From positions 368,694 through 432,693 of the forward strand of contig CAJQLO010000001.1 of the NCBI GenBank assembly GCA_905479195.1: a stretch of DNA of 64,000 nt. Reading direction: 5' to 3'. The notes under the pieces are model-generated. The model saw only the letters and a program-made list of their open reading frames with translations. It ran no database searches and was not told the DNA's origin. A program made the translations under genes and the position numbers. Origin of the DNA: an uncultured Gammaproteobacteria bacterium (GTDB taxonomy: Bacteria; Pseudomonadota; Gammaproteobacteria; GCA-002705445; GCA-002716945). Positions 26,827 through 43,307 of this stretch are shown here, one piece after another; position 1 is the stretch's first letter, and each line of letters begins with the position of its first letter.

Positions 26827-27164
26827 CGAGAGTCAACTATATGATCGCTGTGTAAGCAGAGGAAAGTCCGGGCTCCATAGGCAATAGTGCCAGGTAACGC
26901 CTGGGAAACGTGAGTTTACGGAAAGTGCTACAGAAAATAACCGCTAATATTTTATATTAGTAAGGGTGAAAAGGTGAGGTAAGAGCTCACCACATACGAG
27001 GTAACAAGTATGGTTGAGGCAAACCCCACTAGGAGCAAAGCAAATTTATAGCATTTTGTCAGCCTAAGACACGCTATATGGTAAGCTGCTAGAGGTTTTT
27101 GGCGACAAAAATCCCAGATTAATGATCATACATGACAGAACCCGGCTTATCGGTTGGCTCTTAG
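26827..27164 (+). ncRNA. rnpB: RNase P RNA (bacterial type A, M1 RNA)
   Basis: Contains the universal P4 sequences GAGGAAAGTCCGGGCTCCATAGG and ACAGAACCCGGCTTATCGG, plus the GGTAACGCCTGGG, GTAAGGGTGAAA.GGTG.GGTAAGAGC.CACC and GGCAAACCCCAC..GGAGCAA blocks in the canonical order. The 5' end GAGAGTCAAC pairs with the 3' GTTGGCTCT as P1. Confidence 0.9.
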
Positions 27165-27350
27165 ACTACTTTTTAATTATAAAATCACCATATCAAGATA
27201 AGCTCTTGTTAAATATAAGTATTTGATTAATATAGACTATTTTTAGTATATTCTATGTATTTATGAAGCTAAAGCCTTGCATACATCAATAAAAAGTCAT
27301 ATAGTGTTGATATATGGTAATTTATGTAAGATTGTGGGGAATAATGGTAA

Positions 27351-27803
27351 ATGTTTAAAGGTATCCATAACATAAACTTGGATGGAAAAGGCAGATTAAC
27401 TATACCAACCAAGTATAGAAATACTATTAGTGATCAGTCGAATGGCAATATGGTTGTTACGATTGATTCAGAAGAAAAATGCTTACTCCTTTATCCGGCA
27501 AATATTTTCTCTAATATTGAAACTAAAATCAATGACTTGCCAAGCTTTACTAAAAATACTAGAAGAATACAACGCTTACTAATAGGTCATGCAGAGGATT
27601 TAGAGTTAGATTCAAGCGGAAGAATATTATTACCTAAGCCTCTTAGACTCGTTGCTGAGATGTCTAAAAAAGTCACTTTAATAGGACAAGGTCAAAAATT
27701 TGAAATTTGGAGCGATGATATTTGGAATAATAAAGTCAATAAATGGAGATCTGAAGAAACAGATGAATCAGAGGAATCTGTTTTATCAGATATTAGAATT
27801 TAA
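27351..27803 (+). CDS. mraZ: transcriptional regulator MraZ
   Basis: MFKGIHNINLDGKGRLTIPTKYR... canonical MraZ with duplicated DUF-type halves. 150 aa. First gene of the dcw cluster. Confidence 0.9.
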   Translation: MFKGIHNINLDGKGRLTIPTKYRNTISDQSNGNMVVTIDSEEKCLLLYPANIFSNIETKINDLPSFTKNTRRIQRLLIGHAEDLELDSSGRILLPKPLRLVAEMSKKVTLIGQGQKFEIWSDDIWNNKVNKWRSEETDESEESVLSDIRI

Positions 27804-28000
27804 TGAAATTAGATAGATATTATAGAACATTGGGTGTAACTGGAAATGAAGACGTTAGAGTCATCAAACAGGCATTTATGAGAGTTGCTCAAAAATATCA
27901 TCCTGATAAGAACCCTGATGATATTAAGTCAACTGAGAAATTCATAGATGCAAGAAATGCATATGAACATATTATGAAATATAAAAAAGGTATTCAATAA
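27803..28000 (+). CDS. stand-alone J-domain protein (65 aa) inserted in the dcw cluster
   Basis: RYYRTLGVTGNEDVRVIKQAFMRVAQKYHPDKNPDD...ARNAYEHI is a canonical DnaJ J-domain with the HPD motif. Start overlaps the mraZ stop and the stop overlaps the rsmH start (TAATG both sides). Confidence 0.65.
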   Translation: MKLDRYYRTLGVTGNEDVRVIKQAFMRVAQKYHPDKNPDDIKSTEKFIDARNAYEHIMKYKKGIQ

Positions 28001-28944
28001 TGATTGCTCCGAAACATATACCCGTAATGCTTAATCAGTCTATTAATGCTATGAAGATTGTGCCTAATGGTACTTATGTTGATGCGACATTTGGATTTGG
28101 CGGGCATTCAAGAAAGATTTTAGATGCTTTAGATTCCGATGGTCGACTCTATGCAATCGATAAAGATACATATGCGATTAATATGATTAGAGAAGATATT
28201 ATTAGCGACAAAAGATTCACCCTTAAACATGGATGTTTTTCAGAATTAGAAAATTTTTCTAAAGAATGGGGTATACATGGTTCAATAAATGGAATTCTAT
28301 TTGATTTAGGAGTTTCCTCACATCATCTTGATGAAGCAGGTAGAGGATTCAGTTTTAATAAAAATGGACCTATAGATATGAGGTTTGATCAATCATCTGG
28401 TATTTCTGCTTGCGAATGGTTAGAAACCGTTGATGAACAAACGTTATCACATGTAATTTGGAAGTATGGAGATGAAAGGTACTCGAGACGTATCGCTAGA
28501 GCAATAGTATACCAGAGGGAGCAAGAAAAAATTTCAGATACTGGACAGTTAGCTAAAATAATAGATAAAGCTATGCCTAGAAATGAAAAGCATAAACATA
28601 ATGCCACAAGAACGTTTCAAGCCATAAGAATCTTCATGAATAAAGAGTTAGAGGTTTTAAAAGATGTATTGAGTAATAGTTATAATATTCTGGCTCCAAA
28701 AGGTAGATTAGTACTTTTAACATATCATTCTCTAGAAGATAGAGTAATTAAAAATTTTCTTGCTGTAACGGATGAAAATATTTCTACTCCAAGAAACTTA
28801 CCTATAAAAAATGAATTTTTAAAAAAAATGTTCAATATTATTGCTAAGTCAATTAAACCTGATAAGGATGAGATTGATTTAAATCCAAGATCTAGATCTG
28901 CGAAATTAAATATACTGGAAAAAGCTAATGAGGATTATGTTTAA
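28000..28944 (+). CDS. rsmH: 16S rRNA (cytosine1402-N4)-methyltransferase
   Basis: HIPVMLNQSI...YVDATFGFGGHS...LGVSSHHLD motifs of MraW/RsmH. 314 aa. Confidence 0.9.
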   Translation: MIAPKHIPVMLNQSINAMKIVPNGTYVDATFGFGGHSRKILDALDSDGRLYAIDKDTYAINMIREDIISDKRFTLKHGCFSELENFSKEWGIHGSINGILFDLGVSSHHLDEAGRGFSFNKNGPIDMRFDQSSGISACEWLETVDEQTLSHVIWKYGDERYSRRIARAIVYQREQEKISDTGQLAKIIDKAMPRNEKHKHNATRTFQAIRIFMNKELEVLKDVLSNSYNILAPKGRLVLLTYHSLEDRVIKNFLAVTDENISTPRNLPIKNEFLKKMFNIIAKSIKPDKDEIDLNPRSRSAKLNILEKANEDYV

Positions 28945-29197
28945 TTTATTTATATTATTTATTATTACAATATCAGCTTTTACTGTTGTTCATTTAAAGC
29001 ATAAAAATAGAACCATGAATATTAGTATTGAAAATATTGAGCAAGAATTATCTTTCGAATTAAATGAGCATAAGAGGTTGCTGGATACTAAGGGAAAACT
29101 AATTAATCAGAAGTTAGGAAATACTAATATTGAGAAAAGTCTTGGAATGGAAATTCCATCAAAAAAGAAAATAATTTATTTAGATTTGGTTGAATAA
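28928..29197 (+). CDS. ftsL: cell division protein FtsL (small bitopic membrane protein)
   Basis: 89 aa with an N-terminal TM helix then a coiled-coil-like region. Position after rsmH. Confidence 0.6.
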   Translation: MRIMFNLFILFIITISAFTVVHLKHKNRTMNISIENIEQELSFELNEHKRLLDTKGKLINQKLGNTNIEKSLGMEIPSKKKIIYLDLVE

Positions 29198-29211
29198 ACC
29201 GGAGGTGTAGT

Positions 29212-30381
29212 ATGTTTGAGTTAGTTAATGAGTATAATCAGAATGCTGTGATAAAGGTGATTGGTGTTGGCGGCGGCGGTGGTAATGCTGTCATGTCAAT
29301 GCTTGAATCTAAGATTCATGGTGCAGAATTTATTTTAGCAAATACAGATTCTCAGGCTTTGAGAGATGTGAAGGGCGCTACAATGATACAAATTGGATCA
29401 GAGATCACTAAAGGTCTAGGAGCAGGAGCTGATCCGGAAAAAGGAAGGCAGGCAGCTTTAGAAGCAAAAGAAGAATTATCTTCTGCTATTGAAGGTGCTG
29501 ATATGTTATTTATTGCTGCAGGAATGGGTGGTGGTACCGGCACTGGAGCCGCATCAGTCATTGCTCAAATCGCAAGAGATGCAGGAATATTAACAGTAGC
29601 TGTTGTAACAAAACCATATGAGTTCGAAGGAGCTAAAAGGATGTTGCATGCTGAGCAAGGTATAGAAGCATTGGGTGAGTGGGTTGACTCATTGATTGTA
29701 ATACCTAATGAAAAGTTATCTGAAGTGTTTGGAGGTGATAATTCAATATTCTCATCTTTTGAAAATGCAAATGATGTTTTGAGAGGGGCTGTAAAAGGTA
29801 TTGCTGAAATTATAACCATAAGAGGTTTCATTAATGTTGACTTCGCTGATGTTAAAACTGTAATGTCAGGCCGAGGTAAAGCAATGATGGGTTCTGGTTG
29901 TGCGACAGGTGATAATCGTGCCGAAGAAGCTGTTCAAGCTGCACTAAATAGTCCTTTATTAGATAATATAGACTTGCATGGTGCAAGTGGTGTATTAGTT
30001 AATATTACAGCTGGAGCAAATTTAACTTCTAATGAGTTTGGTGTAATAGGCGAGCGAGTTAAAGAAATTGCAAATGAAAATGCAACCGTTATTGTAGGTT
30101 GTATAAAAGAAGAAGATAGTTTAGGAGAATTAAGAGTGACTCTGATAGCGACAGGTTTTGAAGAATTTTCTGAAAATCCAGATGCTTTAGAAGAAAATAT
30201 ATCTCATAGTCAAACAGGCATATCTTCATCTAATGGAACAATGGCGGCAATGACAACAGCCAATGTTTCATCAACAGCAACTTCTAGCTATAGTAATCCT
30301 ATAACTAGCAATACAATTACAGAAAAAGAAAAGGCAGAGAATATAGATATACCTGCTTTCTTAAGGCAACAAGCTGACTAG
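29212..30381 (+). CDS. ftsZ: cell division GTPase FtsZ
   Basis: IKVIGVGGGGGNAV..., the tubulin signature GGGTGTG, and the conserved C-terminal peptide DIPAFLRQQAD. RBS GGAGG. Confidence 0.95.
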   Translation: MFELVNEYNQNAVIKVIGVGGGGGNAVMSMLESKIHGAEFILANTDSQALRDVKGATMIQIGSEITKGLGAGADPEKGRQAALEAKEELSSAIEGADMLFIAAGMGGGTGTGAASVIAQIARDAGILTVAVVTKPYEFEGAKRMLHAEQGIEALGEWVDSLIVIPNEKLSEVFGGDNSIFSSFENANDVLRGAVKGIAEIITIRGFINVDFADVKTVMSGRGKAMMGSGCATGDNRAEEAVQAALNSPLLDNIDLHGASGVLVNITAGANLTSNEFGVIGERVKEIANENATVIVGCIKEEDSLGELRVTLIATGFEEFSENPDALEENISHSQTGISSSNGTMAAMTTANVSSTATSSYSNPITSNTITEKEKAENIDIPAFLRQQAD

Positions 30382-30406
30382 TAAAAGTAATAGCTTAAGC
30401 AAATAT

Positions 30407-32092
30407 ATGTGGAGACAATATTTTATATTATTTATTGTCTCCATAACTTTTCTTCTCATCATAGCAAGAATTATTTTATTACAAGCATTTGACACCGATT
30501 GTTTTTTATTTAATAAGTCTGACTGCAAAGTTAATCTCAGCCATGTAGCAGATAAACGCCAAATAGATCATAGGATAATTAAAAAATATAGAGGTATGAT
30601 CTACGATAGAAATGGTGAAATTCTTGCAATGAGTCTACCTAAAAAAACATTATGCATTAATGTTTATAGAGTTAAACAATTACTAAAAATAAAGGATGTA
30701 AAATATAGCAAGTTACTCAAAATGATTGGATTGTCTGAAAAAGATTTTTCAAAAATATTGAAGAAACACTCGAATAAGAAAGAATATTATTTAAAAAGAA
30801 AGCTAGATGATAGTCTTGCATCAAAAATAATGGATCTAGATCTACCATATATTTATTTTATACCTGAATTTTCTCGTGTTTATCTTGGAGGATCATATTT
30901 TTCTAATATAATTGGATTTACAGATATTGATGACAATGGTCAAGCAGGTATAGAGTACTCAAAAAATAAAGAATTAAGTCCTACTCCAGGAATCAAAAAA
31001 GTTAGAAAAGATAATCTTGGACGCTCAGTTGAATTAATTGAACTTATTAAAAAACCAATATCAGGAAAGAACATATATCTATCTTTAGACAAAAGGATTC
31101 AGTTTATCGGATATGATATTTTACAAAAACATGTAGAGAGTAGTAATGCTGATAGTGCATCACTTGTTTTGATAAAAAATACAACAGGTGAAATAATTTC
31201 TATGGTGAATTACCCATCATTTAATCCTAATAATAGACAAGAGATGACTGGGCATAAAATAAGAAATAAAGTAGCAACATATACATTTGAGCCAGGGTCC
31301 ACCATGAAACCATTTGCAGTATACACGGCATTAGAGACAAAAGCTGTTGATTATAATTATACTATTAACACTTCTCTAGGTTTCGAATTAAATAATAAGC
31401 CTCTCGAAGATTATAAAGACTTAGGGATTCTAGACCTAACAGGAATCATTCAAAAATCAAGTAATATTGGAGCAGCAACCCTATCAAAAAAAACAAATAG
31501 AGAGGATATATATAATACTCTGAGAGATTTAGATTTTGGTGGCAGTTTATATATTGATTGGCCTGGTGAACAAAATGGAAATCTTCATCACTACAATCAT
31601 TGGTCTGAAGATGACCATGCTTCTATTAGTTATGGGTATGGAATATCAGCAACATTATTACACTTAGCTAATGCTTATGTCACATTAGCTAATTATGGAA
31701 AAAAGATTCAATTAACATATGAAAAAGTAAGCAAGAATGAGATTTATTATGATGAAGTTCTAAGTAAAAATATTTCAAAAGATATCATTGAGATGATGAG
31801 GTCTGTCGTTGAGATAGGAGGTACAGGAAGAAAAGCTAAATTAGAAAAATATTCTGTTGCTGGTAAAACTGGCACATCAAGAATGATAGATAGTGGTAAA
31901 TATAATATAAATAAACATAATGCAATATTTGTGGGTATTGTGCCAGCCTCTAAGCCTGAGTATGTAGCTGCAATTATTGTTCGTAATCCTAGAAAAGGTA
32001 ATGCATCAGGAGGAAGACATGCCGCACCTATATTTAAAGAATTTATGAGTCATTCATTAAATTTATTAAGAGTTTATCCAGATATTAAATAG
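30407..32092 (+). CDS. ftsI: peptidoglycan D,D-transpeptidase FtsI (PBP3)
   Basis: N-terminal TM helix, PBP dimerisation domain, and transpeptidase motifs STMKP, SSN and KTGT. 561 aa. Confidence 0.9.
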   Translation: MWRQYFILFIVSITFLLIIARIILLQAFDTDCFLFNKSDCKVNLSHVADKRQIDHRIIKKYRGMIYDRNGEILAMSLPKKTLCINVYRVKQLLKIKDVKYSKLLKMIGLSEKDFSKILKKHSNKKEYYLKRKLDDSLASKIMDLDLPYIYFIPEFSRVYLGGSYFSNIIGFTDIDDNGQAGIEYSKNKELSPTPGIKKVRKDNLGRSVELIELIKKPISGKNIYLSLDKRIQFIGYDILQKHVESSNADSASLVLIKNTTGEIISMVNYPSFNPNNRQEMTGHKIRNKVATYTFEPGSTMKPFAVYTALETKAVDYNYTINTSLGFELNNKPLEDYKDLGILDLTGIIQKSSNIGAATLSKKTNREDIYNTLRDLDFGGSLYIDWPGEQNGNLHHYNHWSEDDHASISYGYGISATLLHLANAYVTLANYGKKIQLTYEKVSKNEIYYDEVLSKNISKDIIEMMRSVVEIGGTGRKAKLEKYSVAGKTGTSRMIDSGKYNINKHNAIFVGIVPASKPEYVAAIIVRNPRKGNASGGRHAAPIFKEFMSHSLNLLRVYPDIK

Positions 32093-32095
32093 ATT

Positions 32096-33502
32096 ATGAA
32101 TAGCCATATTAGAAATATAATTAAATTTGCACAAGAGATTAATCCCAATATTGTAAACTTTACAAAAATATTTTCTTTTCATAGCAAAGATAACTGTAAA
32201 AATAAAATATTAGTACTCAATAATTTATCCAGAAAGGACATGTATGATTATATAAATGAGGCTATAGATAATGGAATTATTGGGTTAATTATTACAACTA
32301 CTATTGATATTAATTTCTTAAAAAAAGATATTCCGGTTTTTAAATCAAAATATTTAAATGATAATTTAAATATATTTCTTGATTATTTATATAATGAGCC
32401 ACTTAAAGATAAAAAAGTAATAGGTGTGACTGGTACAGATGGTAAAACATCAACCTGTCATCTTATTGCCGAGAGTTTGACTAAATTAGGCAACAAGGTT
32501 GGCCTAATATCTACAGAAGGTAATGGAGTATACCCAAGACTAAAACATAGTAATTATACAACACCAAGAAACGATATTTTATATAAAACATTTGACAGTT
32601 TTAGAAGAAAAAAAGTAGATATTATTGTAATAGAGTGTTCTTCGCAAGGTTTACATCAGGGAAGATTAAATCATATAGTTTTTAATGATGCTATAGTAAC
32701 AAATCTAAATAAAGATCATATTGAGTATCATAAAACATTTAAAAATTATGTTAAATCTAAACAAAAACTTTTAAATATGACTATAGGAAATATTTTCATA
32801 AATATGGATTGTAAGAATTCTATCTCTAAGTTTAGCAATATAAAAAAATCAAAAATAATACTTTATGGAAGTCATGTAGATAAGAATATTATGAGTGACT
32901 TAATTAAACCATCAAATATATTAGAAGATTATTTAATAAAATCCAATAAGTCTCTATTATATAAAATTCTCCTTAATGAGGGTTATTCTTTAAATAAAAT
33001 TAGATTCATCTTAAACAAGAAATCTAAAGTCATTAAAGGACGGATGAATTATTTTAATAATAAAATAAATAATGCTACATATATAATAGACTATGCGCAT
33101 ACAGAATATGCCCTAGATCTGCTCTTGAAGGATATAAAAATACAATCTGGAAAATCATTTTTAATAACTTTATTTGGCTGTGGCGGAAATCGTGATGTGA
33201 GCAAAAGGTCCAGGATGGGAATAGTCGCAAAGAAATATTCCGATCAAATTATTTTAACAGATGATAATCCAAGAAATGAAGATCATATTGCTATAATTAA
33301 TGATATTCACAAGAAAATAAAAGATAAATCTAATATATATATTATACCAAATAGGAAAGAGGCAATGAGGAAAGCATTTTCAATGTCTAAGCAAGACACT
33401 GTCATAGTTTTTGCCGGAAAAGGTAATGAAGATAATATTATTTATAATAATAAAGTTATAGGTCATAATGATATAAATTATTTAAAGAAATTATTGAAAT
33501 GA
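32096..33502 (+). CDS. murE: UDP-N-acetylmuramoyl-L-alanyl-D-glutamate--2,6-diaminopimelate ligase
   Basis: Mur ligase P-loop GVTGTDGKTST and DNPR motif (DDNPRNED). 468 aa. dcw order. Confidence 0.9.
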   Translation: MNSHIRNIIKFAQEINPNIVNFTKIFSFHSKDNCKNKILVLNNLSRKDMYDYINEAIDNGIIGLIITTTIDINFLKKDIPVFKSKYLNDNLNIFLDYLYNEPLKDKKVIGVTGTDGKTSTCHLIAESLTKLGNKVGLISTEGNGVYPRLKHSNYTTPRNDILYKTFDSFRRKKVDIIVIECSSQGLHQGRLNHIVFNDAIVTNLNKDHIEYHKTFKNYVKSKQKLLNMTIGNIFINMDCKNSISKFSNIKKSKIILYGSHVDKNIMSDLIKPSNILEDYLIKSNKSLLYKILLNEGYSLNKIRFILNKKSKVIKGRMNYFNNKINNATYIIDYAHTEYALDLLLKDIKIQSGKSFLITLFGCGGNRDVSKRSRMGIVAKKYSDQIILTDDNPRNEDHIAIINDIHKKIKDKSNIYIIPNRKEAMRKAFSMSKQDTVIVFAGKGNEDNIIYNNKVIGHNDINYLKKLLK

Positions 33503-34857
33503 ATATAACAATAGTAGAATTAGAAAATATCTTAAGATCAGAAGTAACTAATAGTTCTTCCATTATAGATTATAAGAATTCTATCTCTATTGATGGAATT
33601 TCCATTGATTCTAGAACAATTAATAAAAATGAATTATTTATTGCAATAAAAGGTGATAGCCATGATGGGCATTTATTTATTAATGACGCTATTAAAAATG
33701 GAGCATCACTTATTATCTCTGAACATAGAGTGGAAGACTTTCCATATATTTCTGTAGATGATACTACGGATTCTTTAGCTGAAATTGCTAAATTTTATGT
33801 TGATAAAATACATCCTATAGTGATAGGCGTTACTGGTACAAATGGAAAAACTTCTGTGACAAATATGACTTCCATGATCCTGCAGACATATAAGAAAACA
33901 TTAAGTACATATAAAAACTATAATAATCAAATAGGGTTGCCTTTATCAGTATTAAAAGCGACAAAAGATGATGAAGTTTTTGTTTTGGAAATGGGGGCTA
34001 GTAAAGTTGGTGACATAAAAGAATTAGTTCAAATTGCAAAACCAACTATAGTAGCTCTATTAAATGTTTCTCCAGCTCATATGGATAGTTTTAAAAATAT
34101 TGAAAATATCATTAAAACAAAGGAAGAGATTTTGTCATATCAAGGGTATCCAAAAACTGTCATACTAAATCTTGATGATCACAATTTTGAAAGGTGGTCA
34201 TTAAAAGCTAACAAGAATAAAATTATTACAATATCTATTAGTCAGCCAGCTGATTATTACATCTCTGGTTCAAATAACCATAATATATGGGTTAAAACAC
34301 CATATTCAGATATTACAAATTTACATGTAAATGATTTAGAGACCCATACTCTTAATAATATTCTATTTTCAATAGCACTTTCATATGAAGCTGGAGCTAG
34401 ATCCTCAAATGTTATAAAAGGACTCTATGATTATAATGATATAGATGGAAGATTTAGTATAAAGGAAGGGCAGCATGGATCTAGAATTATTGATAGCTCT
34501 TATAATGCTAATCCACAATCTTTTATAGCTTCCATTAATTCGCTTGTAAAATTAGATGGTAATCCTTGGCTTATTATGGGTGACATGGGTGAATTAGGTG
34601 ATAATTCTGAGTTATACCATAAGCAAGTAGTGCAACATGCATATGAGATGGGGATTAAAAAATTATTTGTAATTAGTAAGCATGCAAGCGCAATCCTTGA
34701 GGAATTTGGTAAAAATTCATATGATTTTGACTCAATTGATACATTAATTTCCTTTATCAAGCCACAACTCAATGATAATGTTAATATCTTAGTAAAAGCA
34801 TCGCGTTTCATGGAATTTGAAATTATTGTGAATGCATTAACTGAAAGGAAAGATTAA
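33499..34857 (+). CDS. murF: UDP-N-acetylmuramoyl-tripeptide--D-alanyl-D-alanine ligase
   Basis: Mur ligase P-loop GVTGTNGKTS. 452 aa. ATGA overlap with murE. Confidence 0.9.
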   Translation: MNITIVELENILRSEVTNSSSIIDYKNSISIDGISIDSRTINKNELFIAIKGDSHDGHLFINDAIKNGASLIISEHRVEDFPYISVDDTTDSLAEIAKFYVDKIHPIVIGVTGTNGKTSVTNMTSMILQTYKKTLSTYKNYNNQIGLPLSVLKATKDDEVFVLEMGASKVGDIKELVQIAKPTIVALLNVSPAHMDSFKNIENIIKTKEEILSYQGYPKTVILNLDDHNFERWSLKANKNKIITISISQPADYYISGSNNHNIWVKTPYSDITNLHVNDLETHTLNNILFSIALSYEAGARSSNVIKGLYDYNDIDGRFSIKEGQHGSRIIDSSYNANPQSFIASINSLVKLDGNPWLIMGDMGELGDNSELYHKQVVQHAYEMGIKKLFVISKHASAILEEFGKNSYDFDSIDTLISFIKPQLNDNVNILVKASRFMEFEIIVNALTERKD

Positions 34858-34864
34858 TAACTAT

Positions 34865-35950
34865 ATGCTTTATTATTTATTTGACTATTTAACTCAGTAT
34901 AATTCTGGGTTTGATGTTTTCCGTTATCTTACGTTAAGAATCATATTGGCTGCGCTAACAGCCCTGATAATTTCTTTGATACTTGGGCCCATAGTAATTA
35001 ATTATCTGAACAGTAAAAGTTTATACCAAAGCATAAGAAGTGATGGCCCAAAATCACATATTGAAAATAAATCTCAAACGCCATCGATGGGCGGTCTTGT
35101 CATAATAATATCTATAATATCTAGTACATTTCTTTGGTCTGACATTTTGAATAAAAATATATGGATATTATTGCTCACATTAATATCATTTGGGGCAATT
35201 GGTTTCTATGATGATTATCAAAAATTTATTCATTCATCAAGTGATGGAATAAGCGGAAAGAAAAAGTTAATACTTCAAATTATTATTTCTAGTTTCATAG
35301 CATATTTTATTTTTAGCACATCAACAAGTTTAATAGAGTTAGAACTAATGCTTCCCTTTTTCAAAGATTTCGCATTATATCTTGGAATATTTTTTATACC
35401 TTGGTCCATATTAGTTATCATTGGTTCTAGTAATGCAGTAAATTTAACTGATGGTTTAGATGGACTTGCTATTTTACCTTGTATATTAATTGCCGCAGCA
35501 TTTGTTTTATTTGCTTATGTTGAAGGTAATTTTAATATTGCCAATTACTTGTTAATTCCTTATTTGCCTGGAGTATCTGAGGTTGCAATATTCTCCAGCA
35601 CTATTGTTGGCGCAGGACTCGGTTTTCTTTGGTATAACTCATACCCAGCTGAAGTATTTATGGGGGACGTAGGATCTTTATCGTTAGGTGCTGTCTTAGC
35701 TACAATTGCGATTTTGCTAAGACTCGAAGTTGTATATGCGATAATGGGAGGTGTTTTTGTTATAGAAGCTTTATCTGTAATGATCCAAGTAGCCTCATTT
35801 AAATTATTTGGCAAAAGAGTTTTTAGAATGTCACCTATTCATCATCATTTTGAACTTAAAGGTTGGCCAGAACCAAAGATTATTGTTCGTTTCTGGATTA
35901 TAACCTTTGTTTTGGTTCTCGTAGCTTTAGCATCATTAAAAATTAGATAA
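34865..35950 (+). CDS. mraY: phospho-N-acetylmuramoyl-pentapeptide transferase
   Basis: Polytopic membrane protein with MraY motifs (NAVNLTDGLDGLA, HHHFE). 361 aa. Confidence 0.95.
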   Translation: MLYYLFDYLTQYNSGFDVFRYLTLRIILAALTALIISLILGPIVINYLNSKSLYQSIRSDGPKSHIENKSQTPSMGGLVIIISIISSTFLWSDILNKNIWILLLTLISFGAIGFYDDYQKFIHSSSDGISGKKKLILQIIISSFIAYFIFSTSTSLIELELMLPFFKDFALYLGIFFIPWSILVIIGSSNAVNLTDGLDGLAILPCILIAAAFVLFAYVEGNFNIANYLLIPYLPGVSEVAIFSSTIVGAGLGFLWYNSYPAEVFMGDVGSLSLGAVLATIAILLRLEVVYAIMGGVFVIEALSVMIQVASFKLFGKRVFRMSPIHHHFELKGWPEPKIIVRFWIITFVLVLVALASLKIR

Positions 35951-35951
35951 A

Positions 35952-37259
35952 ATGTCAAAAAATAAATTAATACTAGGTATTGGCGTTACAGGCATGTCAT
36001 GCGCAGATTTTTTTAAGTCTAAAGATATCCCTTTTAGGATATTTGATACTAGAGATCAAGATTATTTTCTTAATTATAACTTTAGAGGCATTAATCTTGA
36101 TTCTATTTATTTTAAAGAGTACCCGGTTGATCTTCTAAGCAATATTGATGAAGTAATAATTAGTCCAGGTCTGGATAAAAATCATAGGATATTTAAAGAT
36201 ATTAAAAGATATAACATTAACGTTATAACAGATATTGATATCTTTAAAAGATACTGTGATAGTAAGCTAATATCTGTTACCGGAACTAATGGAAAGACTA
36301 CCATGGTGACAATGCTAAAATATGCATTTAATAAAATAGGTTATAGCTGCATTGCATGTGGAAATAATGGAATACCTCCTCTTTCAATAATAAACAATAC
36401 TTATGATTACATCATGCTTGAATTATCTAGTTATCAGCTTGAATATATGTCAGATTTAAAATCATTTATTAGTGTGATTACGAACATTGAAAATGATCAT
36501 CTGGAGCGACATAAAAATATAGAAAATTACTCAAAAATAAAATTATCAATATATAATGACTCAGCTTTTTCCTTAGCTTCAAACTCAATTAATCATCTTA
36601 CTGATGGTACAAAAAAAATTAAGACTTATGGCATAACTGATGCTGAAGAAATTATTGTTAATGGCTCCATAATTAAAGATTTAAATTACGATGGCTCCAA
36701 GATATATTTTAAAAATGAAAATTTAGAATATAAAGGAAAGCATAATCTTGAAAACATATTAGGAGTTATCTCTATATTAGATATCATTAAGGTTAATATC
36801 AAGAATTCCTTAAGTGCTTTAAATGATTTTAATTATTTACCTCATAGAATAGAGTTGATTGAATCATCAAATAATATAAATTGGTATAATGACTCAAAGT
36901 CTACAAATTGTGCATCAACAAAGGCTGCACTAGAGTGTATCGATGAGAAAATTATTTTAATACTTGGTGGATCTATGAAGGATATGAATTATGAATCATT
37001 GAGTTCTTTGATAAATCAAAAGGTTAAACTTGTAATATTTATTGGCGAAAATAAAACATATATCAAGAACCAGCTAAAAATAACTACTAAAACGATAGAT
37101 GCCAAAAGTATTGAGTCTGCCGTTGAAATATCATTATCACACTCATTAATTAATGATAATGTTTTGTTATCTCCTGCCAGCCCAAGCTTTGACATGTTTA
37201 AAAATTATGAAGAAAGAGGTGCCGCATTTATTTCTGCGGTTCAAAATATTGTTAAGTGA
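35952..37259 (+). CDS. murD: UDP-N-acetylmuramoylalanine--D-glutamate ligase
   Basis: Mur ligase P-loop VTGTNGKTT. 435 aa. Confidence 0.9.
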   Translation: MSKNKLILGIGVTGMSCADFFKSKDIPFRIFDTRDQDYFLNYNFRGINLDSIYFKEYPVDLLSNIDEVIISPGLDKNHRIFKDIKRYNINVITDIDIFKRYCDSKLISVTGTNGKTTMVTMLKYAFNKIGYSCIACGNNGIPPLSIINNTYDYIMLELSSYQLEYMSDLKSFISVITNIENDHLERHKNIENYSKIKLSIYNDSAFSLASNSINHLTDGTKKIKTYGITDAEEIIVNGSIIKDLNYDGSKIYFKNENLEYKGKHNLENILGVISILDIIKVNIKNSLSALNDFNYLPHRIELIESSNNINWYNDSKSTNCASTKAALECIDEKIILILGGSMKDMNYESLSSLINQKVKLVIFIGENKTYIKNQLKITTKTIDAKSIESAVEISLSHSLINDNVLLSPASPSFDMFKNYEERGAAFISAVQNIVK

Positions 37260-38403
37260 TTTTATTAAAAAGAATATATTAATTAGTGAAAGCCAAGGTA
37301 TAGATCATACCTTAATCATATGCTTTGTTGCTTTATTATCTATAGGAATGATAATGATTACCTCGGCCACACTTGATTATGCATTAGATCAGAAATCAAA
37401 TCCCTATTATTTTATTACTAAACATTTAATCTATTTATCCATGGGAATAGTTCTTTCAGTAATAATTTCTAAAATTAAACTAAGTTTTTATTATGATTAT
37501 GGAAAATATTTTTTATTATTTTCTTTTATTATTTCATTGATAATATTTATTCCTGGGTTAGGAAAAGAAATAAATGGAGCAAAAAGATGGCTTGACTTAG
37601 GTTTTATAACTATACAGGTTTCTGAAGTTTCAAGATTATTTGTGATGTTTTGGATTTCTGGATTTATTGTCAAACATGATGTAACCAAGAGTTTTAATAA
37701 ATGCCTATTCATGATTATTGCATTATCTTTAATTATTCTTTATCAGAAAGACTTTGGTAGTACAGCGCTACTTGTTTTTACATTTTTTTCTTTAATGTTA
37801 GTAGCTGGGGCACATTTAAAATATTTATTTTCTTACATATCACTGGCTTTTCTAACAGCTGTCCCATTGATACTCTATGAGCCATATAGATTCAGGAGAG
37901 TCATATCTTTTATAAACCCTTGGGATGATCAGTCTGGGGGCGGTTACCAACTTATAGCATCACTCTTAGCGTTTGGAAAAGGAGGATTTTTTGGTTTAGG
38001 GTTAGGCTCCAGTGTTCAGAAACTTAGCTATTTACCTGAGTCATATAATGATTTTATATTTGCTTTAATTGCCGAAGAACTTGGGTTATTTTTTTCTTTA
38101 ATTGTACTTATCTTATTTGGTATTATTTTGTTTAGAATTATCAGGCTTGCTAATAAATCATATGATAATAATCTTATATTTGCAGGAAATTTAAGTTTTA
38201 CATTAGGTTTTTTTATTACTTATCAAGCTTTAATACATATAATGGTTAATACAGGTTTGGCTCCAACCAAGGGGATGGGATTACCGTTTATTAGCTATGG
38301 AGGAACTAATCTTTTAATGATGTTTATTTTTATTGGTCTATTGATTAGAATACAAATTGAAAATCGCCAACAAATTAGCCATGCTGTTAAAAGAGGGTAT
38401 TAA
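37249..38403 (+). CDS. ftsW: peptidoglycan glycosyltransferase FtsW (SEDS family)
   Basis: Polytopic SEDS protein. The ORF track starts at 37153 inside murD. I propose a TTG start at 37249 just upstream of the first TM segment. The conserved C-terminal ...GMGLPFISYGGTN motif is present. Confidence 0.8.
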   Translation: MLSDFIKKNILISESQGIDHTLIICFVALLSIGMIMITSATLDYALDQKSNPYYFITKHLIYLSMGIVLSVIISKIKLSFYYDYGKYFLLFSFIISLIIFIPGLGKEINGAKRWLDLGFITIQVSEVSRLFVMFWISGFIVKHDVTKSFNKCLFMIIALSLIILYQKDFGSTALLVFTFFSLMLVAGAHLKYLFSYISLAFLTAVPLILYEPYRFRRVISFINPWDDQSGGGYQLIASLLAFGKGGFFGLGLGSSVQKLSYLPESYNDFIFALIAEELGLFFSLIVLILFGIILFRIIRLANKSYDNNLIFAGNLSFTLGFFITYQALIHIMVNTGLAPTKGMGLPFISYGGTNLLMMFIFIGLLIRIQIENRQQISHAVKRGY

Positions 38404-38409
38404 TTTAAT

Positions 38410-39483
38410 ATGAAAATAATTGCAATTCTAGCTAGTGGCACTGGTGGACATGTATATCCTGCATATACTATTGCGCAAGAATATATCAAGCTTGGCTATA
38501 AGATTTTATGGATTGGAACTAAAAATGGTCTTGAAAATAAAGTAGTAAATAATTCATCAGTAATTATTGAACATGTAAGTTCTCAAGGGATACGAGGGAA
38601 ATCATCACTTAAAAAATTATTAGGCCTATTTAACTTTTTAAGATCCATATATGAATCATTTATGCTGCTTAAAAAATATAAGCCATCTCTGGTTATTGGA
38701 TTTGGAGGCTATGTTAGTGTTGGAGCCTCTGTAACTTCTTTTCTATTATCGATACCAATGGTAGTTCATGAGCAAAACTCAATAGCTGGTACAGCCAATA
38801 AAATTAATTATTATTTTGCTAGACGTGTCTACGAAACATTTCCTTTAAGTTTTAAAAAAAATAGTAAAAAAATAATACATACGGGTAATCCTGTTAGAAC
38901 ATCATTTGATAAAGTAAAGAAACCTGAAGAAAAATATATCGATAATAATCCTTGTATAAATATTTTAGTTATGGGAGGTAGCCAAGGTGCAGAATTTTTA
39001 AATAATACAATGCCTTTTGCTTTTTCTCATTTTCATAGTACTAATATCTCCATAAAACATATTAGCGGTCCTAATCATGCAGAGTTGGTACAAAATAAAT
39101 ATTTAAAATATTCTATAGACGCAACTGTGCTGGCATATTCTGAAAAAATCGAGGAGTTATATGATTGGGCAGATTTAGTTATATGTAGAGCTGGTTCAAC
39201 ATCTATATCTGAACTATCAAAAATAGGAATAGCGGCCTTGTTAGTTCCGTTTCCTCATGCAACAGATAACCACCAATTTTTTAATGCTAGTCATCTAGCT
39301 AAGAATTCTGCTGCTATTTTGTTAGAAGAAAGAATGGATTTTATTGAGAATTTTGTCACTATTGCTAACATTCTCTTAAATGATCAAAAGCGAATGTATA
39401 TGTTATCAAAAAATATACAAAATATATTTCCGTCAAATGCTATAAATATTATTATGGAAGATTCTTTGAAACTAATTAAATAA
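38410..39483 (+). CDS. murG: UDP-N-acetylglucosamine--N-acetylmuramyl-(pentapeptide) pyrophosphoryl-undecaprenol N-acetylglucosamine transferase
   Basis: N-terminal ILASGTGGHVYPA and GT-B fold. 357 aa. Confidence 0.9.
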   Translation: MKIIAILASGTGGHVYPAYTIAQEYIKLGYKILWIGTKNGLENKVVNNSSVIIEHVSSQGIRGKSSLKKLLGLFNFLRSIYESFMLLKKYKPSLVIGFGGYVSVGASVTSFLLSIPMVVHEQNSIAGTANKINYYFARRVYETFPLSFKKNSKKIIHTGNPVRTSFDKVKKPEEKYIDNNPCINILVMGGSQGAEFLNNTMPFAFSHFHSTNISIKHISGPNHAELVQNKYLKYSIDATVLAYSEKIEELYDWADLVICRAGSTSISELSKIGIAALLVPFPHATDNHQFFNASHLAKNSAAILLEERMDFIENFVTIANILLNDQKRMYMLSKNIQNIFPSNAINIIMEDSLKLIK

Positions 39484-39486
39484 ATC

Positions 39487-40356
39487 ATGATAATACAAAA
39501 AAATATGTCTCTAAAAAAATTTACAACAATTCGTATTGGCGGAGATTCAAATAAAATATATTTTCCAGAATCTCTAGAAGACATATCTAGCTTGAAAAAA
39601 ATATTCTTATTACCAAAAACACTGATTATTGGTAAAGGCTCAAATATTGCATTTTCAGATAAGGGGTATAAGCCTGATATTATTTCTTTAAGTAAATATC
39701 ATAATACGCATATTTCTATTATTGGTAATAAGTATATATCTGTTTCTGCCAGCATATCATGCGCGAGACTCGCAAAGTTTTGTCATAAGCAGTCTATAGC
39801 TGGTTTTGAGTTTCTTCATGGAATACCAGGAACAGTTGGTGGAGCATTAGCAATGAATGCTGGTGCGTTTAAACAATCAATATGGGATTCTGTTGATTCT
39901 GTCAATATCGTTAATAACGCAGGTGATATAAAAAATATTTCATGTAAAAAAGTTAAAACTTCTTATCGTCATGTTGATAAAAATAATATTTTATTATTTT
40001 TAGATGTTTTATTAGTTATAAATAAAAGAAAAGTATTTGATGTCAATATTCTTAGAGAGTATTCTGAGCATAGAAGCATCACTCAACCTGTAAAACAATG
40101 GTCATCAGGCTGTATCTTTAAGAATCCCTCAGAGAATACTCCAGCAAGTTCACTTATTGATTCTCTTGACATTAAAAAAAGAAAAATTGGTGGCATATAT
40201 ATATCAAAAAAACATTGTAATTATTTTATTAATGATGGAAGTGGTTCATGTAAAGACCTCATTCAACTAATCCAATATGTTTCAAAATTAATTAAAAATA
40301 AATATAATATCTCTTTAACTAGAGAGATTTGTATATACTCAAATAATAATGAATAA
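39487..40356 (+). CDS. murB: UDP-N-acetylenolpyruvoylglucosamine reductase
   Basis: Short-type MurB. LKKFTTIRIGGDS (FAD-binding), GKGSNI, GIPGTVGGALAMNAGA and the SYRHV motif. 289 aa. Occupies the slot where murC normally sits. Confidence 0.85.
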   Translation: MIIQKNMSLKKFTTIRIGGDSNKIYFPESLEDISSLKKIFLLPKTLIIGKGSNIAFSDKGYKPDIISLSKYHNTHISIIGNKYISVSASISCARLAKFCHKQSIAGFEFLHGIPGTVGGALAMNAGAFKQSIWDSVDSVNIVNNAGDIKNISCKKVKTSYRHVDKNNILLFLDVLLVINKRKVFDVNILREYSEHRSITQPVKQWSSGCIFKNPSENTPASSLIDSLDIKKRKIGGIYISKKHCNYFINDGSGSCKDLIQLIQYVSKLIKNKYNISLTREICIYSNNNE

Positions 40357-41284
40357 GTTATCCGGAAAAAATATTGGGGTATTATGTGGAGGTTGGTCTG
40401 ATGAAAGACCAGTGTCTTTAGATAGTGGTAAATCTGCTTATGAATCACTCCTAAGTAATAATTTAAACGCTTTTCTTTTTGATTTTCAATATGATGATAT
40501 TGGCCTACTTTCTAAATTTATTAAATCTAATAATATAGATCTTGTACTAAATTTAATTCATGGCTCTGGTGGCGAAGATGGTCTGGTACAAAGTTATCTA
40601 GATAGGTTATCTATTAAATATGTTGGCTCAAACTCAAAATCTTCAAAACTTTCATTCAATAAGGTTCATACCAAAGAAATTTGGCTAAGAAATAAATTGA
40701 AAACACCAAATTATCTAAAACTATCTGATAATATTTCTTCAAAAAAAATAGAGGAAATTTTTGATGAAAAATTTATTTTAAAACCATGTGAATCTGGGTC
40801 AAGCGTAGGTATAAAAATATTTAATAGCGCTAATTTTTATTCATCTAGCTATACTGATATATTAAAAAAACTTTCCCTTAATAGTGCTAATGTGCATAAT
40901 TATTTTATTGAAGAATTTATTGCTTCTCCAGAATATACTGCGCCTATTATCAATAATAAAGTTTTCCCAGTAATTAAAATAGAGACAAAGAGAGAATTTT
41001 ATAATTATGAAGCTAAGTATTTAGATAATGATACTATTTTCTCATTTCCTGAGTTTTCAAAAGATATTCATGAAAATATTAATTCAACTTGTATGAGGGC
41101 TTTTAATAGCATCGGATGTTTTAACTGGGGGCGTGTTGATTTTTTTATGGATAAAGATTTATCAATTAATTTAATTGAGATTAACTCTATACCGGGTATG
41201 ACTGATCATAGTTTAGTACCTAAGTCTGCAAAAAAGAATGGGTTTTCATACGATCAATTACTTTTATTACTTTTAGAATATTAA
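40349..41284 (+). CDS. ddl: D-alanine--D-alanine ligase
   Basis: N-terminal IGVLCGGWSDERPVSLDSGKS and ATP-grasp C-terminal domain. 311 aa. Confidence 0.85.
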   Translation: MNKLSGKNIGVLCGGWSDERPVSLDSGKSAYESLLSNNLNAFLFDFQYDDIGLLSKFIKSNNIDLVLNLIHGSGGEDGLVQSYLDRLSIKYVGSNSKSSKLSFNKVHTKEIWLRNKLKTPNYLKLSDNISSKKIEEIFDEKFILKPCESGSSVGIKIFNSANFYSSSYTDILKKLSLNSANVHNYFIEEFIASPEYTAPIINNKVFPVIKIETKREFYNYEAKYLDNDTIFSFPEFSKDIHENINSTCMRAFNSIGCFNWGRVDFFMDKDLSINLIEINSIPGMTDHSLVPKSAKKNGFSYDQLLLLLLEY

Positions 41285-41285
41285 T

Positions 41286-41948
41286 ATGAAAAGAACTATT
41301 ATCATTTTTAGTTTATTTTTATTATTTATTGGCATATATAATTATCCTATTTTTTTTGGCAAAAATCCTGTAAAACATATTTTTAAAGAAGGAATATTTG
41401 AGTATAGTAATGAATCTAGAATAGATGGTATTTTAAAAGAATATATTTCTAAAGAAATTTATCAAATTGATTTACGAAGATTAAAGAATGAAATAGAAGA
41501 AGACCTCTGGATAAGAAATGCACAAATTATATTAAATCCTCCAGATGAAATTATAGTTAAGATATCTGAATTCAAGCCTTTGTTTTTATGGAATAATACA
41601 TCATATGTAGATGAAGAAGGGTTTTTTATTGAAAGTGGGAAACATCCTATTAAAAATATTCTAGAGATATCTAGCAACCAAGATGACAAGGTTTTCATGT
41701 ATGATTTGTATTTAAACCTTAAAATAATATTATCTACAATTGATATTAATATTATTAAATTATCGAAAGATCGTGAAATGATTACTATACTAACTTCAAA
41801 ATATAGATTTTTTGTGCGTCATAGTGATTATGAATCAAAGATGAAAGAGTTTTTGTCTGTATATGAGCAATTTTTATTAACTCAAAAGTCTGGAAAAATA
41901 AGAAAGAATATTGATTTAAGATACCCTACAGGTTTTGCTGTACAGTAA
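41286..41948 (+). CDS. ftsQ: cell division protein FtsQ (bitopic, POTRA-containing)
   Basis: 220 aa with an N-terminal TM helix. Position between ddl and ftsA. Confidence 0.6.
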   Translation: MKRTIIIFSLFLLFIGIYNYPIFFGKNPVKHIFKEGIFEYSNESRIDGILKEYISKEIYQIDLRRLKNEIEEDLWIRNAQIILNPPDEIIVKISEFKPLFLWNNTSYVDEEGFFIESGKHPIKNILEISSNQDDKVFMYDLYLNLKIILSTIDINIIKLSKDREMITILTSKYRFFVRHSDYESKMKEFLSVYEQFLLTQKSGKIRKNIDLRYPTGFAVQ

Positions 41949-41966
41949 AAAATGATATTATAAAGC

Positions 41967-43217
41967 ATGGCAAATACTACAGTTAAAGATGAATTTATCG
42001 TTGCTCTAGATATAGGAACTACTAAGGTTTTATGTTTAGTTGCTGACTATGATGAAGATGGGGAGTTAAGATTAGTAGGCATCGGTCAAGAGTCATGTAA
42101 TGGGCTAAATAAAGGTGTTATTTCTGAAATTGATGCAACCGTAAGAAGTATTCGAAAAGCAAAAGATCAGGCTAGAGCCATGACAAATTGTAAATTTACT
42201 AAAGTAATTACCGGTATTGCCGGGAATCATATTCAGAGTTATAACGGCAATGCAGCCATTAATATTCTAAATGATGAAGTCACACAAGAAGATAAAGATA
42301 AGGTTATAGCAAGTGCAAGTGATATTAGCATACCTGCTGACCAAGAAATTCTTCATAGAATACCTCAATATTTCACCATAGATGGACAAATGGGTATAAA
42401 AGAGCCAATTGGAATGGCTGGTAAAAGGTTGGAGGCAAATGTCCATGTTATTACATGCTCAACAACTGCTAAGAAGAATTTAACAAAGTGTATAGAAAAT
42501 AGTTTTTTAGAAGTCGATGAATTTGTATTACAACCGGTAGCTTCTAGTTACTCAGTTTTAACAGATGAAGAGAAATCTTTGGGTGTATGTCTTGTGGATA
42601 TTGGTGGAGGAACTACAGATATTGCTATTTTTACTGATGGCGATATAAAGCATACTGCTGTAATCCCTCTTGCTGGTCAAATGGTCACCAAGGATATTCA
42701 AATAGGATTACGTACTTCATTTGAAGCAGCTGAAGATATAAAACAGAAGTATGGTAGTTTAATTAATGAGACGAATGACACTGCGGTTAATATACCAGTG
42801 CCATCAATTTCTGATAAACCTGCATCTGAAGTTAATAAACCAATTCTTACACATATGATTACTTGTAGAGTAGATGAGATATTCCAACAAATAGAAGAGG
42901 AAATTAATTCTAGTGGGTGGGTGTCAAAAATTAGAGCTGGCATTGTCTTTACTGGCGGAGGTTGCAAACTAAATGGTCTAGATACATATGCTGAAAATAA
43001 ATTACTGATGCCAACGAGAATAGGTAGTCCAAAAGAAATAACTGGAATACAAAACTTGAGCGGCAAGACAAGGTATGCAACAGCTGTCGGGCTATTATTA
43101 TATAAAGATGAAAAGCTTAATGAAATGCCTCATAGGCAAAAATCTGAAAATCCATTCCTAAGATATCTTGAAGTAGTTTGGAAAAAATTCTCAGTGTATT
43201 TTCAACGAGAACTTTAA
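41967..43217 (+). CDS. ftsA: cell division protein FtsA (actin-like ATPase)
   Basis: FIVALDIGTTKV (phosphate-1), VDIGGGTTDIAIF (phosphate-2). 416 aa. Confidence 0.9.
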   Translation: MANTTVKDEFIVALDIGTTKVLCLVADYDEDGELRLVGIGQESCNGLNKGVISEIDATVRSIRKAKDQARAMTNCKFTKVITGIAGNHIQSYNGNAAINILNDEVTQEDKDKVIASASDISIPADQEILHRIPQYFTIDGQMGIKEPIGMAGKRLEANVHVITCSTTAKKNLTKCIENSFLEVDEFVLQPVASSYSVLTDEEKSLGVCLVDIGGGTTDIAIFTDGDIKHTAVIPLAGQMVTKDIQIGLRTSFEAAEDIKQKYGSLINETNDTAVNIPVPSISDKPASEVNKPILTHMITCRVDEIFQQIEEEINSSGWVSKIRAGIVFTGGGCKLNGLDTYAENKLLMPTRIGSPKEITGIQNLSGKTRYATAVGLLLYKDEKLNEMPHRQKSENPFLRYLEVVWKKFSVYFQREL

Positions 43218-43307
43218 TATCAATATCCTGTCTAAGTCAATAAGGCCTAAAATGCTTGAAATTACTTAACATTTATCAAGAATTGCTATAAAATACATAC
43301 TAAATAT

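Follow-up and report, generated by a model that had tools for sequence, protein, structure and literature searches.

The stretch of DNA analysed here, called the window throughout, comprises 64,000 nt of contig CAJQLO010000001.1 from an uncultured Gammaproteobacteria bacterium and carries a cluster of division and cell wall genes (dcw cluster) in which ftsZ lies between ftsL and ftsI. Genes were identified by open reading frame (ORF) listing combined with NCBIfam and Pfam scans of the window proteins, and RNA genes were identified by means of Rfam. All members of the cluster are on the forward (+) strand, in the order rnpB, mraZ, a J-domain ORF, rsmH, ftsL, ftsZ, ftsI, murE, murF, mraY, murD, ftsW, murG, murB, ddl, ftsQ, ftsA, lpxC and secA, within a region with a G+C content of about 30%. 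The contiguous and co-directional mraZ...ftsZ gene set that characterizes a dcw cluster was found at positions 27351-43217, with murC missing and murB present. The canonical proteobacterial cluster, as in E. coli, reads mraZ-rsmH-ftsL-ftsI-murE-murF-mraY-murD-ftsW-murG-murC-ddlB-ftsQ-ftsA-ftsZ-lpxC. This order, which places ftsI right after ftsL and closes with ftsQ-ftsA-ftsZ at the 3' end, was found neither in the window nor in any of the clade relatives.

The displaced gene, ftsZ (29212..30381, +), scored 386.3 bits against TIGR00065 (cutoff 295.2). Its product is 54% identical to E. coli FtsZ from end to end and displays the tubulin signature GGGTGTG, the T7-loop NVDFADV and the C-terminal peptide DIPAFLRQQAD. 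An initial annotation of this DNA had described a bona fide ftsZ between ftsL and ftsI, and both the identity of the gene and the exact positions of its junctions were confirmed. Upstream, mraZ, the J-domain ORF, rsmH and ftsL succeed one another by consecutive overlaps or abutments, and 14 nt then separate ftsL from ftsZ. The ftsL gene (28928..29197, +) scored 36.2 bits against TIGR02209, slightly below the cutoff of 42.45, and matched PF04999 with E = 1.7e-4; its size and position agree with those of FtsL in the outgroups. On the other side, 25 nt lie between the ftsZ stop and the annotated ATG of ftsI (30407..32092, +, counted from the in-frame ATG of the window), which was recognized by its PBP2/FtsI family matches. 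At the 3' end of the cluster, ftsA (41967-43217, +) is followed directly by lpxC (43308..44225, +; TIGR00325, 390 bits). The 90-nt spacer between them has no space for an ftsZ remnant, and the break in ftsA-ftsZ adjacency noticed in the initial annotation is real.

Distribution and polarity of the arrangement

The occurrence of this order was surveyed by an FtsZ scan that took a single genome for each GTDB species, after which the window proteins were mapped onto the 80 retained loci. An identical FtsZ protein was encoded on 23 independently assembled contigs (ENA, Logan and NCBI; the longest of 870 kb), with the order mraZ, J-domain ORF, rsmH, ftsL, ftsZ, ftsI and murE (five places displayed and 18 collapsed as similar). 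A comparison with the dcw clusters of the closest relatives had been suggested as a check, and it revealed ftsL-ftsZ-ftsI at 15 further clade loci (FtsZ 65-94% identical), 12 of them in the genomes of other species. These 12 closest species loci (L001-L011 and L013; FtsZ 65-75% identical) come from marine metagenome-assembled genomes (MAGs) and single-cell genomes of several studies, and all read dusA-orf277-(rnpB)-mraZ-rsmH-ftsL-ftsZ-ftsI-murE. Three closer metagenomic relatives (FtsZ 94, 88 and 84% identical) had the rearranged order too. As to the reciprocal junction, 43 metagenomic contigs were recovered with FtsA (72-99% identity, full length), and all those reaching past this gene read ftsA, lpxC, secA. 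The 68 other loci (FtsZ at most 55% identical) displayed ftsQ-ftsA-ftsZ and/or ftsZ-lpxC adjacency without exception.

The rearrangement is fixed throughout a lineage of marine Gammaproteobacteria that are uncultured and low in G+C. This clade is abundant, globally distributed and free-living, and ftsL-ftsZ adjacency constitutes a simple synteny marker for it. Identity levels within the clade are as low as 37-50% for MurE and 46-67% for FtsI; the arrangement has therefore persisted through deep divergence, roughly at the family to order level. Two related contigs look either chimeric or erroneous. In L119 (Ga0209335_10027463), ftsA is 96% identical to that of the window, the adjacent lpxC 63% and secA 49%. 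In L013 (10001-11088), identity is 98% over FtsZ residues 1-123 and 75% over the remainder, with a frameshift between the two parts.

E. coli and the outgroups L135 and L136, all with full-length clusters, display the full canonical order; the rearranged state is the derived one. Adjacency of rnpB and mraZ was observed in clade relatives (L001 and L005) as well as in the canonical outgroups (rnpB at 3018-3367 in L135 and at 3046-3391 in L136) and therefore represents an ancestral border of the cluster. Since this border and the lpxC-secA border are both intact, the cluster still occupies its ancestral chromosomal slot, the internal order alone having been altered. In the ancestor of this deep clade, ftsZ would have moved about 13 kb upstream, from the 3' end behind ftsA to its place between ftsL and ftsI. 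If ftsI..ftsZ had first been duplicated in tandem, and the first ftsI..ftsA and the second ftsZ had then been deleted, no essential gene would ever have been missing, which would make this the simplest route. In an outgroup MAG (JBPLDX010000159.1; L135 10001-12270), ftsW comes straight after mraY and murD is absent from an otherwise canonical dcw cluster.

The junction between ftsZ and ftsI

Read in the ftsI frame, the linker between the two genes (30374..30409, +) starts with a CTG (30374-30376) inside the last ftsZ codons and continues through a 28-nt spacer (30382-30409); it is proposed as the genuine beginning of the ftsI reading frame. The junction was aligned for 16 clade sequences, ten from subclade A and six from subclade B (the window, L001-L011, L013 and L130-L132). 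From the ftsZ stop to the W/x-R codons, the spacer measures exactly 28 nt in 10 of 10 sequences of subclade A and exactly 22 nt in 6 of 6 of subclade B, while its sequence is strongly diverged. Not one of the 16 linkers contains a stop in the ftsI frame. Among eight diverged representatives, the count is 0 in this frame versus 18 and 4 in the other two (joint shuffle P ~0.003). Relative to ftsZ, the ftsI frame is +1; a stop four to five codons ahead of the ftsZ stop closes it. In most of the 16 sequences, more in-frame stops come right after that of ftsZ itself.

The window (30407) and L001 alone carry an in-frame ATG at the base of the stem described below, and L130, whose FtsZ is 94% identical, has AGG at the position of this ATG. 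For 10 of the 16 sequences, no in-frame ATG, GTG or TTG exists before the end of the 17-residue transmembrane segment. Gene callers cut FtsI to 487-538 residues in the close relatives devoid of the ATG, versus 561 in the window (23-74 residues lost), and automatic annotation shortens FtsI in most of the genomes of the clade. The linker has the behaviour of a coding sequence, and most relatives are without a canonical ftsI start. The sole class of start-like in-frame codon common to all 16 is a CTG or ATT within GCT-GAY-TAR, which is made up of the last two ftsZ codons and the stop. A start at this codon would give FtsI a Lys/Asn/Ser-rich tail of 11-12 residues. Outgroups have an ftsI ATG of their own overlapping the ftsL stop (ATGA in L135 and L136), with tails of 13-23 residues (13-14 in L135 and L136). 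The clade resembles the ftsL-ftsI pair of these two outgroups in that the ftsI frame opens at the stop of the preceding gene; it differs in that the upstream partner is ftsZ and in that the overlapping codon, at which initiation would take place, is CTG or ATT.

A conserved RNA stem-loop with perfect 11-nt arms (30410..30443, +; arms TGGAGACAATA / TATTGTCTCCA) begins 28 nt past the ftsZ stop. Its folding energy is -17.5 kcal/mol (z = -6.0) in the window, and values for the stem-loops of eight other species range from -17.5 to -24.7 kcal/mol (z = -4.6 to -6.9). The arms differ between the subclades, GGAGACAAT...ATTGTCTCC versus GGCTGCTGTT...AACAGCAGCC, and RNAalifold identified compensatory double changes in 8 of the 11 pairs. 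In the structure so named, 93% of the cells are paired compared with 75% in shuffles, none of 500 shuffles reaching 93%. Covariation amounts to 0.66 versus 0.30 in shuffles, and the signal is lost once the partner columns are shifted by one or two positions. The stem-loop is located inside ftsI, where its translation is W-R followed by the beginning of the transmembrane segment, (M)WRQYFILFIVSI..., and the W-R region aligns with S-W-R-F of E. coli FtsI at the cytoplasm/membrane boundary. None of the Rfam families matches it. It was also considered as a repeated element of the repetitive extragenic palindromic (REP) kind, and this was rejected as it is unique in the window.

Hairpins also occur near the corresponding sites outside the clade. 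Within ftsI of E. coli K-12 (L133 2160-2182), a 9-bp hairpin, GCCAACU...AGUUGGC, covers the A-N-F-I-S-W-R codons, with z = -2.4 for a 66-nt segment. No comparable hairpin was found at the ftsI site of L135 and L136. Many outgroups possess strong stem-loops in the ftsZ-lpxC spacer, some with T-runs; these spacers are GC-rich and without sequence similarity, so that a post-ftsZ hairpin travelling along with ftsZ is no more than suggested.

The fixed in-frame linker, the missing start codon and the covarying hairpin suggest coupled expression of ftsZ and ftsI. The breakpoint of the rearrangement would have removed the start codon of ftsI together with its cytoplasmic tail, and the former 3' flank of ftsZ would have become a new tail-coding linker. 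Translation of ftsI could then proceed from the ftsZ termination region, through re-initiation or weak initiation at the CTG/ATT in GCT-GAY-TAR; initiated at the ftsZ stop, FtsI would begin (M)TSKSNSLSKYMWR, and its synthesis would be tied to that of FtsZ at a low, constant proportion. The stem-loop may protect the 3' end of the ftsZ-containing mRNA, act as a partial attenuator or block stray initiation.

Other ways of entering the ftsI frame were considered. A programmed +1 frameshift of the prfB or Ty1 type, which calls for a conserved slippery P-site codon with a slow A-site codon, is improbable: GAC/GAU is unable to re-pair in +1, subclade B has UUA-AGA-C where subclade A has UUA-AGG-C, and no conserved slippery motif was detected. 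Slippage by +1 at the T-run of the loop was ruled out, L011 and L013 having no such run. An apparently conserved NTG start located 1 nt before the ftsI Trp codon is trivial, as any base followed by the conserved TGG generates NTG, and the corresponding frame yields short, non-conserved ORFs with stops.

Expression signals and other features of the cluster

Upstream of mraZ lies a conserved candidate promoter with MraZ-box-like repeats. An alignment by eye of 12 clade sequences showed the putative Pmra promoter (27277..27305, +; -35 TTGCAT, 17-nt spacer, -10 TATAGT) to be nearly invariant in all of them. Between the -10 element and the mraZ ATG lie four direct repeats that resemble MraZ boxes (TGGTA, TGTAA, TGGGG and TGGTA; 27315..27349, +), with an exact 10-bp period. 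The register of these presumptive boxes is conserved across the clade, with an exact match to TGGGN in one of the four. Pmra of E. coli (NC_000913) consists of TTGACA/TAAACT followed by three copies of GTGGG with the same 10-bp period, a repeat said to be the operator of MraZ.

A Shine-Dalgarno sequence, GGAGGTG (29201..29207, +), precedes ftsZ, with a predicted duplex of -10.8 kcal/mol with the 16S 3' end. Pairing values for the other genes of the cluster range from +1.9 to -6.3 kcal/mol (-0.1 for ftsA and -0.6 for ftsI). The ribosome-binding site of ftsZ is by far the strongest of the cluster and its sole strong Shine-Dalgarno. GGAGG is conserved before ftsZ in all clade members and GGAG also occurs upstream of ftsZ in the canonical outgroups, which implies that ftsZ moved with its own ribosome-binding site. 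Within the ftsA-lpxC spacer (43218..43307, +), a promoter-like TTGAAA (43256-43261) and an A/T-rich -10 (43278-43294) were found, and CTTGAAA...TAAAAT is conserved in metagenomic relatives with FtsA 72-99% identical; this motif is consistent with a separate promoter for lpxC.

The ftsA-ftsZ pair of model organisms, at the 3' end of the cluster, harbours promoters and processing sites to which the setting of the critical FtsZ:FtsA ratio is attributed. In E. coli, ftsZ relies in part on promoters located in ddlB-ftsA, and the whole cluster of B. cenocepacia was reported to be transcribed from Pmra under MraZ control, without active ddl-ftsA promoters (PMC7761207). This single transcript, devoid of active internal ftsZ promoters, is the transcription model that we infer for the window; B. 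cenocepacia has the canonical order with ftsZ last, whereas ftsZ is the fifth cistron here. The cluster would still be one MraZ-controlled transcript, on which the distance of ftsZ from the promoter would be about 1.9 kb instead of about 15 kb. Promoter proximity and the strong ftsZ ribosome-binding site, and not dedicated ddl-ftsA promoters, would then account for high FtsZ levels relative to FtsA and FtsI. It is plausible, and consistent with these findings, that promoter-proximal ftsZ may alter the FtsZ:FtsA ratio.

The comparison with the canonical order made in the initial annotation was correct regarding the relocation of ftsZ; it overlooked the missing murC, the presence of murB in the murC position and the extra J-domain ORF. 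The 197-nt interval between mraZ and rsmH, previously taken as a gap, is filled by this ORF (27803..28000, +), which encodes 65 residues with an HPD motif (PF00226, 53.8 bits, residues 6-60). At its two ends it overlaps the stop of mraZ and the start of rsmH, respectively. It was predicted as a gene on independent contigs and is present in 12 of 12 clade genomes with 45-66% amino-acid identity, YHPDK being kept. It is absent from E. coli, L135 and L136, in which 1-11 nt separate mraZ from rsmH. Apart from one piece of a full DnaJ with a frameshift, from an unrelated bacterium, a homologue search returned in-clade proteins only, of 53-106 residues (mostly 62-70). The PF00226 match and the HPD motif place the protein in the J-domain family; it consists of the J-domain alone and hence is not a full DnaJ, in which the J-domain is accompanied by a G/F region, a zinc finger and a client-binding domain at the C-terminus. 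The J-domain ORF is probably a second insertion that accompanied the ftsZ move in the cluster.

An E. coli MurC query gave no match in the cluster or in the entire 64-kb window. The same query located murC after murG in L005, L008, L009 and L010 (about 20.2-21.1 kb) and in L117 (2100-3461). As murC is retained after murG in these deeper-branching members, it left the cluster later and in the subclade of the window only, as an event separate from the ftsZ move.

The remaining genes were assigned as follows, all on the + strand. The class A RNase P RNA gene rnpB (26829..27165) matched Rfam RF00010 with 294.8 bits, mraZ (27351..27803) matched TIGR00242 with 145.9 bits (cutoff 98), and rsmH (28000..28944) matched TIGR00006 with 351.8 bits. 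Genes murE, murF, mraY, murD, ftsW and murG follow ftsI in canonical order (32096..39483; murG at 38410-39483) and were recognized by NCBIfam equivalogs. Straight after murG comes murB (39487..40356; NF010480 and TIGR00179), then ddl, ftsQ and ftsA (40349..43217; ftsQ at 41286-41948), identified with NCBIfam and Pfam; secA (44552-47125) lies downstream of lpxC. A 16-nt inverted repeat at the 3' end of mraZ (27749-27791, +), just before the J-domain ORF, has a folding energy of -19.9 kcal/mol (z = -5.3). As a feature of the clade this hairpin was rejected, its presence being limited to the window, L003 and L013. Between dusA and rnpB, a 277-residue ORF (orf277; 25956-26789, +) is syntenic in all clade genomes and gave a weak, sub-threshold match to the methyltransferase family PF08242. 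Further upstream (about 2170-24400), precomputed Pfam hits indicated a module for tetrahydromethanopterin-linked one-carbon transfer (Fae, MtdB-like Mpt_N, Mch, Ftr and Fhc subunits), cofactor-synthesis ATP-grasp and CitG-like genes, an SBP56 (methanethiol-oxidase-like) protein and a cytochrome c peroxidase/SCO1 fusion.

Alternative explanations and biological meaning

With the canonical cluster, that of the window shares the same gene set apart from murC and the added murB, the co-directional and tight packing, the downstream lpxC and secA, the first position of mraZ behind a putative promoter with repeats of 10-bp period that resemble the TGGG type, and the rnpB-mraZ border as in other Gammaproteobacteria. 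This clade departs from it by the position of ftsZ between ftsL and ftsI, by ftsA abutting lpxC, by the extra J-domain ORF, by the absence of murC (in the window), by most ftsI genes being without canonical start and cytoplasmic tail, and by the conserved hairpin after ftsZ. The Mycoplasma genitalium operon mraZ-mraW-MG_223-ftsZ (PMC8475190, PMC12957436) is likewise headed by MraZ and has ftsZ a few genes past mraZ and rsmH (mraW). However, the proximity of ftsZ in the mollicute cluster arose through deletion of all peptidoglycan genes, whereas here the mur and fts genes stay downstream of the moved ftsZ, and the cluster is consequently not of the reduced mollicute type. The gene order of dcw clusters is a classic example of conservation across Bacteria, about as stable as that of ribosomal clusters, and surveys report losses, fragmentation and insertions (PMC8871954). 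No description of ftsL-ftsZ-ftsI, ftsZ-ftsI or ftsA-lpxC order was found in the literature searched, which did not cover the main survey (Megrian et al. 2022). The arrangement is an apparently new variant of the known dcw cluster, fixed in an abundant marine lineage.

Several explanations other than the relocation of a native gene can be envisaged for this order. The window represents metagenome-type data and some related contigs (L119 and L013) appear chimeric or erroneous, which could suggest that the ftsZ segment was joined to the window contig by assembly or binning. However, identical junctions were observed in 23 contigs from different samples and assemblers, in the 12 species genomes and in the three closer metagenomic relatives; they recur in the single-cell genomes AH-324-A07 and AG-461-I20 and in MAGs from at least six studies, and the reciprocal ftsA-lpxC junction is universal in the clade. 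The possibility of a chimeric segment, raised in the initial annotation, is thereby excluded, and an artefact of any such kind is hardly conceivable. Xenologous replacement, in which a foreign ftsZ is inserted after ftsL via horizontal transfer and the original post-ftsA copy is deleted later, would yield the same gene order, and the overall G+C content of the ftsZ segment (0.38) does exceed that of its neighbours. This excess, however, is confined to codon positions 1 and 2 (0.51 and 0.43) because the protein is rich in Gly and Ala, whereas the G+C content at third positions (0.205) is as in neighbouring genes (0.16-0.27). The best non-clade matches of FtsZ (L012 and L014) are also the best for LpxC; these nearest proteins come from the same Gammaproteobacteria/Betaproteobacteria loci, at distances similar to those of FtsA and MraY. 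Mobile-element genes or repeats were not found beside ftsZ in the window. The gene is compositionally native, and the agreement at third positions together with the common nearest outgroups therefore points to a resident gene that was translocated and not a foreign gene that was acquired; a xenologous origin is very unlikely. Equally to be considered is a canonical role held by a second ftsZ elsewhere in the genome, the post-ftsL copy being one of two paralogues. FtsZ duplications are known, for example the truncated paralogues of Hyphomicrobiales (bioRxiv 10.1101/2025.09.29.679267). However, there is no second ftsZ within the 64-kb window, nor any second locus from a clade assembly among the 80 retained loci; the ftsZ of the window has every canonical feature, including the C-terminal peptide that binds FtsA and ZipA, and the ftsA-lpxC gap is just 90-130 nt in all relatives. 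A paralogue at this position is highly improbable.

A different objection is that the relocation is real but neutral. It would have been fixed by drift in a streamlined lineage, the FtsZ:FtsA ratio being set by ordinary means such as the ribosome-binding site of ftsZ, mRNA processing or unrecognized internal promoters, and the junction hairpin and the odd ftsI start being unrelated local features. In favour of this, the strong GGAG Shine-Dalgarno of ftsZ also exists in the canonical outgroups, so that strong translation is not new, and transcription of the B. cenocepacia cluster from Pmra alone (PMC7761207) indicates that position-independent control of ftsZ exists; the promoter scan was uninformative, and E. 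coli has its small hairpin near the same codons. On the other hand, the arrangement is fixed across very deep divergence (MurE 37-50%) in a cluster of otherwise highly stable order (PMC8871954), and constraint is evident on the length of the linker, on its open frame and on the hairpin alike, which argues for a functional junction and not merely a tolerated one. Neutrality is a possibility to be kept in mind, though an unlikely one.

Among these readings, an ancient transposition of the native ftsZ inside the dcw operon, real, fixed in the lineage and with consequences for expression that we infer from the position and signals of the gene, is considered probable, if well short of certain. A number of observations weigh against it. 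A generic promoter scan returned 113 promoter-like sites versus 115.7 in shuffles, and internal promoters are neither supported nor excluded by it. The hairpin was not called by a terminator scan, and a clean U-run follows the stem only in L001, L002 and L010, where it also encodes hydrophobic residues. The weaker E. coli hairpin lies beside the same W-R codons, and some structure could thus predate the ftsZ move. The CTG/ATT in GCT-GAY-TAR is expected by chance from the choice of Ala and Asp codons in an AT-rich genome and brings no independent evidence for a start codon, while the window does have an in-frame ftsI ATG at 30407. The outgroups used for the ftsL-ftsI junction are distant and GC-rich. 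Lastly, the absence of a second ftsZ among clade assemblies concerns the retained FtsZ-encoding loci and not whole genomes, and is weak as negative evidence.

A bolder proposal extends the transposition of ftsZ to the whole junction. In the clade, ftsI would have no start of its own and would be made only by ribosomes finishing ftsZ, through re-initiation at CTG/ATT or, much less likely, as a +1 FtsZ-FtsI fusion; the hairpin would tune this coupling and the J-domain mini-gene would tie DnaK to the divisome. This proposal is speculative and, taken as a whole, rather doubtful. If it were true, the septal transpeptidase would be hard-wired to FtsZ synthesis, a previously undescribed way of setting divisome stoichiometry.

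The arrangement means that the canonical position of ftsZ is not obligatory. Transcript levels of ftsZ may track growth differently in this lineage, which is relevant to the use of ftsZ expression as an in-situ growth index (for example PMC13349992). The clade constitutes a natural experiment relating operon position, ribosome-binding strength and translational coupling to divisome stoichiometry.

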